The notes under the pieces are model-generated. The model searched no databases. It was not told where the DNA came from and saw nothing but the letters and a program-made list of their open reading frames with translations. From Leucoraja erinacea (Eukaryota), in contig NC_073379.1 in assembly GCF_028641065.1 (NCBI RefSeq), positions 36,084,001-36,148,000 on the forward strand: DNA of 64,000 bases, given 5' to 3'. Positions 30,925 through 39,100 of the stretch are shown here, in pieces. Both the position numbers and the translations under genes were made by a program. Each line of letters starts with the position of its first letter. Positions within the stretch are counted from its first letter, which is position 1.

Positions 30925-31250
30925 CGTCATGTCCGTATTTGACTTTTCGGCAGAGCGGCCATTCGGTGAGTTGGCTTGTAGACGATGCAGCCTTTCGGTG
31001 AGTTGATATTTCGGCATAGCGGCCTTTCGGTGAGTTTGCTTTTAGGCATCCCACCCTTTCGGTGAGTTTGCTTTTAGGCATCCCACCCTTTCGGTGAGTT
31101 TGCTTTTAGGCATCCCGCCCTTTCGGTTAGTTGGCTTTTCAGCTTCGTACGCTTTCAGTTAGTTGGCTTTTCGGCCTTGTTTCCGTTCGGTTATCTGGCT
31201 TCCACTTCTTTGCTTCGGCTTCTCGTCCTTTCATGCCACGTCTGGGTACC
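30489..31250. mobile_element. Foldback MITE with ~70-bp inverted repeats and 9-bp TSD (Mutator-like)
   Basis: IR arms ~30497-30567 and ~31170-31242; GTCCTGGCC at 30480-30488 and 31251-31259; internal C36 run and 32-bp tandem array. Confidence 0.75.
30959..31180. repeat. 32-bp minisatellite (~7 units)
   Basis: CCTTTCGGTGAGTTTGCTTTTAGGCATCCCAC-type units start at 30959, 30991, 31023, 31055, 31087, 31119. Confidence 0.9.
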
Positions 31251-33652: not shown

Positions 33653-35039
33653 CAGCCGGATATGGGTGGCAGGTGCTGCCAGCTTAGGCACAAGCTATTG
33701 TAAGACTCCAGGACTTCTGTGGAGAAACACAGTCAGGTCCTAGTCTACACCCTGTGAACAGAGCAGGAACTTTTATTTTATTTCAAAATTATTACTTTAT
33801 TCATGACATGTGAAAATGTGTGTAAATTGAAACATGCACATGCGTCACCATTCTCAGCACATCACATTGTTCTTTTTACGTTGGATCGGTTTTCTTTTAT
33901 GTACTTTCTAGGTTGATAATTTGTCAGTAGCAGCCCATTAAACGTATAGTCTGGTGTTACACAAAATACACAAGAGACTGCAGATGCTGGGATCTAGGCC
34001 AAAAACAAACTACTGGAGGAACTCGGTGGGTCAGGCAGCATCTCTGGAATCCAGGGGAATGATCTACCTGAAATGTTGACTGTCCTTTTCATTTACAAAT
34101 GCTGCCTGACCCCCTGAGTTCCTCAATCAGTTTTATTTTTGGTTTGGTGATACACAATTGTTCAGAATGAACGTCATCAACAACCATTGCATCACTTTAC
34201 AGAAGACGATGGGCTAAAGCCTCATCCCAACTGTTATCACCACAAGAGCAGCCATTGAGACTCCAGTTGTGTATTAAAGATTTCAGGAGAAAGATCACTT
34301 TCATTGCCTGCCAAGCATGACGTTGGTGTTGGTTTGAGAATTCTGGCATTCTGTCAAATTAATTTGATAGTCTGTCTGAAGAACCGTCCAGTATATCCAT
34401 CATCTCCTCCATCTATAGGGCCTTGAGAGCATTCCAAGCAGACCACTGTTTGATCACTATTAGAGATGAGTGCTGGGGATGATCATGGATCATTACGCAG
34501 AATGGATCATTAAGCAGCACCGTGGCTGGGCACAATTGGGAACAGACAGAGCCTACATATGAGGTGACACTTGATAGTCATGTGTCCACAGCTGGATGTT
34601 GCCACATGCAGATGTAGTCATCAGGATGAGGGAGATATTAGGAAACAATTTTCCTGCCGGTTCTCTGGAATTTTGTACATGGCAAATGTCGTCCAATTTC
34701 AGTCTTCAGGTAAAATGAATTGCCTTGGGTTACTGATGTAATGCAAGGTCACCGTGTGAATCACACCAGTGCCACTTCAGCAACACCTCACAACTCGCAT
34801 CTGACCACCAGATTATGTCCTTCTACAGAAAGGAAAGGTAACTGCTGGAATCCCAGTTTCTGTTTCACCTTGGCCACACCCTGCAGCCAGTTCTTTGTGC
34901 AGATGGCTGTGGAGGCCAAGTCAATGGATATTTTTAAGCGGAGATGGACAGATTCTTTATTAGTAAGGGTGTTAGGGGTTACGGGGAGACGGTAAGAGAA
35001 TGGGGTTAAAAGAGAAATATAGATCAGCTTGTAGATCAG

Positions 35040-36602
35040 TGTCACTCATGCTTTGAGTCATACTGTGGCTCCGCCCACTGGTTTAATAGAAAGCCCTTTT
35101 CCCTTTCTTCCCCAGTCTTGAGTAGTGTGTTAAGATGAAGTTACCTATGCTTTATTGCTAATAAAATTATTTGTATCTTAATCACTGTACGTGAGTTAAG
35201 TCATTCCAACATGGTGTCAGAAGTGGGATACGAACCAACGCCTCCAAATGGAGACCAGTGCAGTGTGTAACAGCTTGACACCTCATCACCAAGAGCAACC
35301 ACTTCTCTCACACCCAGCTCCTGCCCTCCCGTCGTCTATAGTGGCAAATGACATATTTGAGTGGCATGGCAAACAGTACCTGGTACTTGTCGACTCATAA
35401 TCCAGCTGGTTTGACATCGATTTTCTTATTAGCTCTGCTTCTCACGGGATAGTTCTAAAACTCGCTCGCCATTTTGTAGACCATGGAGCTCCTTGCATAC
35501 TGCTATCTGATAACGGCAGTCAATTTACCGGCCAGCACTTCAAAGAGTTTGCTGCATGCTGGGGTTTTCACCACATCACCAGCAGCCCTGAATATCCACA
35601 GTTGAATGGACTGTCTGAACAAGCTGTCACGAGCTAATGGAATGATCCCACAGAGCTAATTCCGACATGTACCTGGACCTGCTCAACCTACACAACATCT
35701 CCCGCAACCCCATCTTGGATTCACCTTCTCAACGTTTATTGTCAAGGCAGGCCCGAACCACGGTGCCTGTGGCAGATCAGGCATTGATCCCGCAGGTGGT
35801 CCCACCATCGGAAGTACAGTCCAGGCTGCAACAAAATCATGACCTTCAAAAACATTGGTATGACAAAAGAAGCAGGCCGCTGCCACCATTAACCAAGGGG
35901 CAGGTGATTCGTTTGCAAACTGACAAAGGTCATGACCGTATTGGTGTAATTTCTGGAACTGCCTCTGAGCCACACTCATATTTGGTTAGTGCTGATGGCG
36001 GCACCTACAGACGTAACAGACAACATATCCTGCCTGTGAATGAGCCGGCTCCATCTCCGTATTATCTCGACCGTACAAGTGTACTTCCGTCCACGTCCAG
36101 CGGCATCAGTCTGCCTATACCAGCACAACAACCCACTTTTGAAATGGCTACTCTGCCAATGGCGATGCCTCCTCCGCCTGTGCCAAAGTCCCCTGTTTCA
36201 TCACCGGGAATGCTGTTTCAATCTCCGCCACCAGTAATACCACCGACTCTGTCCCCAATGACGAAAAAACGGAAATGGTTTATATAGCGCACACATGCTG
36301 GCTGTGTTTGCAAGCCCACCATGAAATACTCAGGCTATGTTTGACTTTCCTCCAGCTTATTATCAACTGCTATGCATGCCTTATTTAGTCAATGGTTTTG
36401 TACTGACATTTAATTCTTTAAGAACGAGGATGTCACTCATGTTATGAGTCATACTGTGGCTCCGCCCACTGGTTTAATAGAAAGCCCTTTTCCCTTTCTT
36501 CCCCAGTCTTGAGCAGTGTGTTAAGATGAAGTTACCTATGCTGTATTGCTAATAAACGTTTTTGGATCTTAATCACTGTACGTGAGTAAAATCATTCCAA
36601 AA
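35040..36602 (+). mobile_element. Internally deleted Ty3/Gypsy LTR retrotransposon (LTR-PBS-integrase-PPT-LTR)
   Basis: 172-bp LTRs 35040-35211 (TG..CA) and 36431-36602, about 11 mismatches by eye; PBS TGGTGTCAGAAGTGGGAT; integrase remnant CSVC...DIFEW..YLVLVDS...LSDNGSQF...SSPEYPQLNG...YRRNRQHI; purine tract 36420-36430. Confidence 0.92.
35212..35258 (-). other. Extended primer-binding site: 47-nt copy of the 3' half of mature tRNA-Leu
   Basis: Minus strand CTGGT-CTCCATTTGGAG-GCGTTGGTTCGTATCCCACTTCTGACA-CCA: variable-arm hairpin, T-arm, acceptor strand and encoded CCA. Confidence 0.85.
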
Positions 36603-36734
36603 CAGCCATAATTGAATGGCGGAGTAGATTTGATGGGCCAAATGGCCTAATTCTGCGCTTGTGAACATATCCTCGTCTTTCAGAAACATCTTTCCATCAT
36701 CTCGAGGCAGCTGGCATTGTTGGTGAAGGGGTAA

Positions 36735-39100
36735 AACAATAATCTGCCGGAAATAGCAGGGGACCACGGATCAAATGAGGAACTGAGTGAAATCCAGGTT
36801 AGTCCGGAAGTGGTGTTAGGTAAATTGAATGGATTAAAGGCCGATAAATCCCCAGGGCCAGATAGGCTGCATCCCAGAGTGCTTAAGGAAGTAGCCCCAG
36901 AAATAGTGGATGCATTAGTGATCATTTTTCAAAACTCTTTAGATTCTGGAGTAGTTCCTGAGGATTGGAGGGTAGCTAATGTAACCCCACTTTTTAAAAA
37001 GGGAGGGAGAGAGAAAACGGGGAATTACAGACCAGTTAGTCTAACATCGGTAGTGGGGAAAATGCTAGAGTCAGTTATTAAAGATGGGATAGCAGCAAAT
37101 TTGGAAAGTGGTGAAATCATTGGACAAAGTCAGCATGGATTTATGAAAGGTAAATCATGTCTGACGAACCTTATAGAATTTTTCAAGGATGTAACTAGTA
37201 GAGTGGATAAGGAAGAACCAATGGATGTGTTATATCTGGACTTTCAGAAGGCTTTCGACAAGGTCCCACATAAGAGATTAGTATGCAAACTTAAAGCACA
37301 TGGTATTGGGGGTTCAGTATTGATGTGGATAGAGAACTGGCTGGCAGACAGGAAGCAAAGAGTATGAGTAAACAGGACCTTTTCAGAATGGCAGGCAGTG
37401 ACTAGTGGGGTACCGCAAGGTTCAGTTCTGGGACCCCAGCTATTTACAATATATATTAATGATTTGGACGAGGGAATTGAATGCAACATCTCCAAGTTTG
37501 CGGATGACACAAAACTGGGGGGCAGTGTTAGCTGTGAGGAGGATGCTAGGATGCAAGGTGACTTGGATAAGTTGGGTGAGTGGGCAAATGCATGGCAGAT
37601 GCAGTATAATGTGGATAAATGTGAGGTTATCCACTTTGGTGGCAAGAACAGGAAAGTAGACTATTATCTGAAAGGTAGCCGATTAGGAAAAGGGGAGATG
37701 CAACGAGACCTGGGTGTTATGGTACACCAGTCATCGAAAGTAGGCATGCAGGTGCAGCAGGCAGTGAAGAAAGCGAATGGTATGTTAGCATTCATAGTAA
37801 AAGGATTTGAGTACAGGAGCAGGGAGGTTCTACTGCAGTTGTACAGGGCCTTGGTGAGACCAAATCTGGTGTATTGTGTACAGTTTTGGTCTCCAAATCT
37901 GAGGAAAGACATTCAGGCCATAGAGGGAGTATAGAGAAGGGTCCCCAGACTCATTCCTGGGATGGCAGGACTTTCATATGAAGAAAGACTGGATAGACTT
38001 GGTTTATAGATTAGATTAGATTAGATTAGATTATTACTTTATTAATCCTCTTATTCAGAGGAAATTCAGATGTCCTTGCAGTACACTAATAAAAATACAA
38101 CATAGCATTCAAGAAGTTTAACATTAAAACATAAAACATCCCCCCACAGAGGTTCCCACTGTGGGGGAAGGCACAAAGTCCAGTCCCCATCCTCTTGTCC
38201 ACCCAGAGTCGGGCCTATTGAGGCCTCCACAGTCGCCGTTACGGGGCCCGATGTTCCCGGCCGTTCTCGCCAGGTGATGGTACTCCAGCGTCGGTAGAAC
38301 CCTCAGCAGCTTGGGGTGCCAGGAACGGCCGCCCTCTTACCGGAGACCGTGGCCTCCAGGCCAACAGACCGCGCTGAACGAAGCTTCACTCACTGGCGAT
38401 CTCGGCGAGAGATCCCAGGCTCCGGGATGTAAAGTTCAGCGCCGCAGCTGACCGCTCCACAGAACCACGGCTCCACGATGTTTTTATCGGCGGTCCCAGC
38501 ATACTGGAGTTCCAGCGCGGCGATCCAGGCAAGGCATCGCCCGCTCCGCGACAGCGCCCCAGCGCTGCGCCGCCGCCAAAGCCGAGGTTCTGGCCAGGTC
38601 CCCTCAGAAAACGTCGCTCCAGGACCCGCTGGTAGGCCACGAGGACAGGTCGAAGGTGCTGCTCGGAGGAAGGCAGCCTCACCGTCCAGGTAGGGATTTG
38701 AAAAAGCAGTTTCCCCTTCCCCCCCACCACCCCCCACACAACAAGATTAGACCCCCCCCGACTACACACTTTAACGCACTAAAAATAATAAAAAGGAAGT
38801 GAAGAAAATGGACAGCTGCAGGACAGGCAGCCGCACAGGACAGCGCCCCTACCGGAGTATACTCGCTAGAATTTAGAAGATTGAGGGGGGATCTTATAGA
38901 AACTTACAAAATTCTTAAGGGGTTGGACAGGCTAGATGCAGGAAGATTGTTCCTGATGTTGGGGAAGTCCAGAACAAGGGGTCACAGTTTAAGGATAAGG
39001 GGGAAGTCTTTTAGGACCGAGATGAGATAAATATTTTTCTCACAGAGAGTGGTGAATCTGTGGAATTCTGTGGAGGCCAATTCACTGGATGATTTCAAGA
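36735..39100 (+). mobile_element. CR1 LINE RT region, interrupted by 849-bp insertion
   Basis: KSPGPDRLHPRVLKE, NYRPVSLTS, DFQKAFDKV, KFADD; continues after 38858. Confidence 0.92.
38009..38857 (-). mobile_element. GC-rich retroposon family member, apparently full length
   Basis: (AATCT)n tail after AATAAA on minus strand; TATA duplicated at 38005-38008 and 38858-38861 within the CR1. Confidence 0.8.

Follow-up and report, generated by a model that had tools for sequence, protein, structure and literature searches.

A dead Gypsy insertion and many similar junctions carry copies of the mature tRNA-Leu primer, a likely genomic record of tRNA modification in Leucoraja erinacea

How does a retrotransposon insertion come to carry 47 nt of antisense tRNA directly behind its long terminal repeat (LTR), at a place where about 3 kb of its own coding sequence is missing? 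The question is raised by one locus in a 64,000-nt stretch of the L. erinacea genome (here, the window; G000:C3:36084001-36148000 of a 2.19-Gb genome). An earlier note, made from the letters of this stretch, had proposed that read-through of the primer tRNA gave an over-long strong-stop DNA that was mis-transferred to an internal site, and a genome-wide set of comparable junctions supports this overall reading. The locus is very probably a dead Gypsy insertion whose reverse transcriptase (RT) copied 47 nt into the mature tRNA-Leu(CAA) primer, likely misread two methylated bases and jumped internally. That note had missed the mark in the variable loop, how short the native primer site of the family is, and the genome-wide scale of the phenomenon.

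Structure of the element

The element (35030-36602, plus strand, as are all the features given below) has two LTRs, a primer site, a polypurine tract and a target-site duplication. The 5′ LTR (35030-35211, TG...CA, its start set from the relatives) shows 11 differences over 172 nt to the 3′ LTR (36431-36602), which lacks the first 10 nt found in the 5′ LTR and in the relatives; the missing bases were lost between two short direct repeats. The polypurine tract (36420-36430) was located by its sequence and by the relatives. Integrase-type insertion is marked by a 5-bp duplication (35025-35029 and 36603-36607) with four of five positions identical, and several relatives also show 5-bp duplications.

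Directly behind the LTR-terminal CA, positions 35212-35258 are antisense to the 3′ 47 nt of a CCA-tailed tRNA-Leu(CAA), as already recognized, with 43 of the 47 positions identical to the spliced host gene L152. The first part (35212-35222) is the 10 to 11 nt of primer-binding site common to the undeleted relatives. It is followed by bases absent in those relatives that finish an apparent 18-nt site, to tRNA position 59 (35223-35229), and that were probably templated by the tRNA. At 35230, there is an A opposite tRNA A58, where T is expected, a likely misincorporation at m1A58. The copy then proceeds through tRNA positions 57 to 40 (35231-35258), i.e., the T arm, the variable arm and the 3′ strand of the anticodon stem, and includes another A at 35247, opposite the C that is second to last in the variable loop (47d in a linear count), where G is expected and misincorporation at m3C is likely. 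Besides 35230 and 35247, the mismatches to L152 are at 35237 (position 51) and 35248; these two sit at unmodified-looking tRNA positions and fit a decay of ca. 3% per strand of descent, and they show how little a single copy can prove. The hairpin first described as CTCC-ATTT-GGAG is the variable arm, but ATTT is not the loop of the genes (AACT or GACT), 35247 and 35248 being mismatched. The fragment is too short for automatic recognition, and neither ARAGORN (whole window) nor Rfam (34800-36800) reported a tRNA.

The tRNA copy gives way at 35259 to integrase sequence. The decayed remnant (35259-36345, the 3′ bound being approximate) begins where the zinc finger ends and covers the core and the C-terminal part, with stops and frameshifts, and its rve match (E 2.3e-6) lies under the curated cut-off. 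Relatives align from 35259 onwards, each with its own upstream codons. The first reading of the joint, zinc-finger codons CSVC, was right about integrase but not about the letters, since the frame that leads into the core reads S-A-V-C. Relatives read S-C-A-V-C, and the joint is therefore inside the first Cys codon of the C-A-V-C motif. Elsewhere in the window (30943-31198), 32-nt units are repeated in tandem between the arms of a 65-nt inverted repeat.

The family has a short native primer site

Thirty relatives were located, and 20 of them were examined with long flanks; they are decayed, so that “undeleted” is used here by length only. Their pol order is RT, RNase H and integrase (L187 and L196), the order of Ty3/Gypsy elements, and among solved structures the RT piece of the family is closest to the Ty3 RT (E 1e-22). 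In five longer relatives, 2.5 to 3.1 kb separate the primer site from the position of the joint, and ca. 3 kb are missing in the window copy, a large internal deletion as the earlier note had supposed. All ten longer relatives with a visible primer site match the tRNA over 10 to 11 nt at most (with a mismatch in three of the ten sites) and continue with the family leader; in the other ten, no 5′ LTR plus primer site appeared within the range examined. Members without the extension had been expected, and that is what these longer relatives are, but the 18-nt primer site taken for a family feature is not one. With a native site of only 10 to 11 nt, bases 12 to 18 of the apparent 18-nt site are likely tRNA templated.

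These relatives also bear on the idea that the long match is a selected primer-site extension encoded by the family, like the primer over-extension sequences described in lentiviruses (PMC13191261). We consider it extremely improbable, as the ten visible sites are all short and, inside one family, both the length and the letters of the extension vary from copy to copy. The window's deleted junction was not found a second time among 40 scored of 1988 candidates, a search that was not exhaustive, or among the 192 events described below. As far as tested, then, the locus does not belong to an amplified non-autonomous (TRIM- or LARD-like) family, a point that the earlier note had asked to check.

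A genome-wide set of tRNA-extended junctions

A 22-nt pattern made of the primer site, any base and six tRNA bases had 336 exact matches in the genome and none with the reversed control, i.e., the matches are not due to chance. With the CCA-derived start included, there were 298 exact copies extending past position 58 (we estimate ca. 400 in all), nearly all with a junction of their own and distributed over many LTR families. We read 192 of the 298, taking the first listed for each letter opposite position 58 (90 T, 72 A, 17 G, and 13 C), a non-random sample. They fall into 33 LTR-end clusters, and just seven pairs have like downstream sequences, two of them near-identical local duplicates; the events are independent. 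In 181 of the 192, the tRNA copy, in plus-strand polarity, directly follows the LTR-end CA. The upstream LTR stretch recurs downstream in 31 cases with an identity of 80 to 100% (some of the highest values are short jump-back duplications), indicating that the events cover a long time span. In one case (L240), present twice via local duplication, the tRNA copy skips one arm of the variable hairpin.

A pattern of LTR end plus 10-nt site gave 1572 matches (control, 39), and 771 had the full 18 nt; both patterns miss copies in which one downstream position is C. A hand count of the first 100 among the 771 gave 52 with an extension. Corrected for this filter, rough estimates are ca. 400 extended copies, ca. 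490 ending near 18 nt, and ca. 1000 short or decayed. Contigs of related organisms cover the extension region, as tRNA genes would too, but their tables do not list positions 35230 or 35247, and we draw no cross-species conclusion from them.

The template was mature tRNA. All 298 copies have the CCA, and five copies elsewhere in the genome that read through G37 (see below) are in the spliced register, while the tRNA-Leu(CAA) genes carry an intron after G37; the window copy ends before the splice point. Recombination at the DNA level with a tRNA gene, or a tRNA retrocopy made by a LINE, might be imagined in a genome rich in LINE-type repeats. Such origins are hardly credible given the CCA tail, the absence of the intron in the read-throughs, the position directly after the LTR-end CA, and the lack of a tail or a duplication of their own.

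Both A58 and a C as the last-but-one loop base are present in all 26 tRNA-Leu(CAA/CAG) genes found, so that T is what the genes predict at 35230, and these genes match the extension, as the earlier note required. The gene list derives from an exact 5′ pattern, and the assembly may collapse tRNA arrays; ARAGORN without the intron option missed the L046 gene. Nine intron-containing tRNA-Leu(CAA) genes are clustered at G000:C12:6292531-6334159, six of them with A replacing G57.

Errors opposite position 58

If the RT read through m1A58, misincorporation is predicted at that position, and the pattern is present genome wide. The letter opposite A58 in the 298 copies is T in 165, A in 93, C in 21, and G in 19 (the last two totals were hand-counted from a list of 40), i.e., 133 are wrong. 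As a control, we used a pattern with ten free positions (266 matches) and tallied the first 100 by hand; position 58 was wrong in 48, its seven non-CpG neighbors in 0 to 4, and a CpG pair in 8 and 14. Neutral decay would favor the transition to C, whereas A is the most common wrong letter. Since 31% of the events have A, and decay amounts to ca. 3% per site spread over three letters, the A at 35230 appears far likelier to come from an RT error than from later decay. RTs are described as misincorporating at m1A, mainly dATP in some contexts (PMC4787781), and we infer that the modified base is m1A58. Raised mismatch at tRNA positions 57, 56, 49, and 48 was also considered as a signal and rejected, being explained by CpG decay or variant genes.

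A second mark at the variable-loop C

The variable-loop C is wrong in 80 of 114 CAA-type events (on the plus strand, A in 61, T in 11, and C in 8), mostly C-to-T in the tRNA sense, while its non-CpG neighbors are wrong in only 0 to 4%. Copies of the CAG isoacceptor behave alike, with 10 of 11 wrong. Ends also accumulate here: immediately in front of this C there are 19 of the 192, while the eight positions before it average 2.4 each. A C before U in the variable loop, combined with RT errors and stops, corresponds to the sequence setting of m3C47d/e2, and the mark is likely m3C47d. Human and zebrafish tRNAs reported to carry this modification are Leu-CAG and Ser, and Leu-CAA is not among the tRNAs named in the available portions of those sources (PMC7969016 and PMC11417395).

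The signal might be real but of another kind, i.e., C-to-U editing, another modification of the Watson-Crick face, or tRNA genes that were not assembled. The predominance of C-to-T (61 of 80) would suit such an origin, as would the omission of Leu-CAA from those human and zebrafish listings and the unusual modified U described at this site in zebrafish Ser-CGA. However, editing or variant genes would not give three wrong letters together with a peak of stops, and the signal is shared by the two CAA loop types and by CAG copies, where m3C47d is known; C-to-T is, besides, reported as the chief error at m3C (for mRNA sites). An origin other than m3C thus looks unlikely, and we retain m3C47d as the probable identity. 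Errors at position 58 were linked neither to errors at the loop C (Fisher p 0.84) nor to its passage (p 0.33), both in a sample picked by the letter at 58.

Ends at G37 and G26

Position 38 is reached by 29 events. Twelve end there, most of the others extend 1 to 3 letters, the amount expected from chance or acceptor matches, and all but about two of the 29 end no further from position 38 than chance matching would carry them. L120 reads on to position 33; L125, a candidate read-through of G37, was rejected because its acceptor site supplies identical letters. A read-through pattern gave seven matches; its reversed control is high (33), so that context alone counts. Five are primer-site copies in the spliced register, and the other two are chance matches without a primer site. 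The letters opposite G37 in the five are G, A, C, C, and A (a wrong base in three), and they end at 28, 27, 29, 27, and 32, two exactly at 27 and none beyond it, with G26 being the next base. Between the loop C and G37, ends are scattered across 12 positions in the variable arm and anticodon stem, and no known block explains them. A stop near the anticodon loop had been proposed from the window; a cut-off at G37 does exist genome wide, but the window copy itself ends at position 40, two bases short of that boundary, and does not by itself show a stop caused by G37.

We take m1G37 and m2,2G26 to be present on tRNA-Leu(CAA) specifically, and they would be the modifications at these end points. 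Both are listed for many zebrafish tRNAs, and both are described as common RT barriers (PMC8062790).

tRNA-templated copies are coupled to deletions

What follows the primer site varies with its length. The first coding match is gag in 9 of 11 short-site copies, and in none of 14 18-nt copies, 10 of which have pol within 600 nt and 4 no coding match; both samples are small and were drawn from a single contig, within its first 45 Mb. Among the 192 extended copies, pol is found within 600 nt in 112 (14 of them antisense) and at 600 to 1100 nt in 9. The remainder have an LTR repeat within 1450 nt (18), gag only (5), a later pol (1), or none of these (47).

The microhomology at the joints could be assessed in the 108 of the 192 events for which an unjoined homologue of the acceptor was found, the other 84 having no testable acceptor. 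Its mean length is 1.88 nt, against 0.72 in 300 shuffles (maximum, 0.98), and it reaches at least 3 nt in 28% of the events versus 6% in the shuffles. Microhomology at the joints, as originally expected, is visible in the genome-wide set but only weakly in the window copy, with 1 exact nt and 4 of the last 8 matching, a value that alone is not above chance.

We propose the following sequence of steps. While making the first plus strand, the RT would enter the mature tRNA-Leu(CAA) primer and copy 47 nt of it, with probable misreading of two methylated bases, A58 and the loop C. With a native site of 10 to 11 nt, a plus strand that has copied at least 18 nt would have a 3′ end unable to pair with the minus-strand primer site, and this tRNA-bearing strand would be a dead-end product, as in yeast Ty1 and Ty3. 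It could be rescued only where its 3′ end meets a short microhomology, which may lie deeper in the element, back in the U5 region, or on the other strand. The landing point might be a stalled minus-strand end; the sequence does not separate these sub-routes. Synthesis would then be completed, and integrase would insert the product with a 5-bp duplication. We infer that the aberrant transfer took place within one round of reverse transcription.

A different history would keep the tRNA copy as proposed and make the loss of 3 kb a separate, later deletion or recombination starting at the end of the copy. The weak microhomology of the window copy could be read in this way, and so could the few events that re-enter the native primer site without loss (L086). 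However, tRNA-templated copies almost never precede the normal leader and gag, as short-site copies usually do, and the microhomology is between the end of the tRNA and the acceptor, making a separate deletion very unlikely compared with a transfer during reverse transcription.

The junctions are diverse. In L070, L109, L126, L137, L141, and L231, the extension jumps back into the last U5 bases and continues into unrelated, probably flanking, DNA; these are miniature products with the entire interior lost. L086 and L067 have, after the extension, a second primer-site start, which in L086 leads into the normal family leader, i.e., an insertion without deletion. Antisense pol, reached in L198, L209, L003, L348, L351, L356, and L374 among others, is also found in 4 of the 14 18-nt copies and needs a switch to a plus-sense template plus a second switch. 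L231 and L252 are separate events that share one acceptor site and have different loop letters. At G000:C2:14350931, an 18-nt copy appears, from the match listing, to join a few bases from the position equivalent to 35259 of the window.

Comparison with known systems

Pulsinelli and Temin are said to have described, in 1991, how wrong termination of plus-strand strong-stop DNA led to deletions and captured cellular sequence in single-round retroviral vectors. For HIV proviruses, the mechanism has already been described. Hardy et al. (2025) give 44 aberrant second-strand-transfer sequences from defective HIV-1 proviruses, with inserts of 7 to 54 nt and 5 of the 44 changed at position 58, and, in the text available, treat read-through as an absence of modification (PMC12657518). 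In both systems, the primer site runs on as a tRNA copy that defines the deletion junction, and the window copy has the features of that class (LTR end, primer site, more antisense tRNA, and an insert that is the deletion junction). In contrast, the HIV-1 events are, as presented there, somatic, rare, and derived from a retrovirus with an 18-nt site, whereas the events here are in the germ line, belong to Gypsy elements with a short native site, number in the hundreds, and show 45% errors at 58 and further marks at 47d, 37, and 26.

In HIV-1, m1A58 is the main place where plus-strand strong-stop DNA terminates, with minor products running on to later modifications, 37 among them (PMC13191261 and PMC8599865), although these were described in vitro or in cells and for a different tRNA with different modifications. 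HIV-1 RT also stops at 55 and 54, which our extended set cannot show, since the pattern needs six bases past 58. Ty1 and Ty3 are closer in having a short primer site and in copying the tRNA beyond it; their tRNA-bearing plus strand is described as a dead end, the primer copy not being inherited (PMC5371799). Their product copies 12 nt and is lost, while here such products have been integrated in large numbers after mis-transfer. Laboratory mapping gives errors and stops at the same positions, 58, 47d/e2, 37, and 26 (mim-tRNAseq, PMC8062790; tRAM-seq, PMC11417395; HAC-seq, PMC7969016; m1A signature, PMC4787781). The difference is that here the enzyme of the element wrote the read-out into genomic DNA in the course of evolution.

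The scale and the information content found here are unreported in the literature searched. In particular, the search, made outside subscription journals and Repbase notes, found neither an endogenous record on a genomic scale nor the link to a short primer site described.

A possible natural library of tRNA modifications

It seems likely from these letters and end points that the genome keeps a record of chemical modifications on its own tRNA. We lean towards a broader view, in which short-site Gypsy elements would routinely integrate the dead-end plus strand, and nearly half of the Leu-primed LTR junctions would be single-molecule reads of germ-line tRNA by the element's own RT. The genome would then be a natural library of m1A58, a previously unreported m3C47d on tRNA-Leu(CAA), m1G37, m2,2G26, and possibly inosine 34. 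LTR divergence would allow such records to be dated, and they could be read in any assembled genome, even for species never studied biochemically. Assembled genomes might in this way give in vivo data, otherwise restricted to a few model systems, on which bases of germ-line tRNA are modified and how retrotransposon RTs respond to them. The set would also be vertebrate sequence evidence for the model, derived from yeast, in which the primer copy is not passed on by elements with a short site, and would reveal a major way in which LTR copies lose their interior. Where such families are annotated with 18-nt primer sites, caution is needed, as these sites can be accidents rather than family features. 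In this lineage, tRNA-Leu(CAA) is predicted to carry a blocking modification on its variable-loop C.

Other primer tRNAs

A generic pattern for other primer tRNAs had 13 matches, against 15 in the control, and six look tRNA derived on reading. Two near-identical copies, L337 and L338, have a tRNA 3′ copy, presumably of the proline type, that continues past 58 and then passes into telomere-like repeats. A single Leu(AAG)-primed case (L328:1504-1563, at G000:C2:45116438) shows C at the site facing wobble position 34, where T would be expected from AAG genes and A from TAG genes; it reads as inosine would, or may reflect a later transition, and it ends at 27, just before G26.
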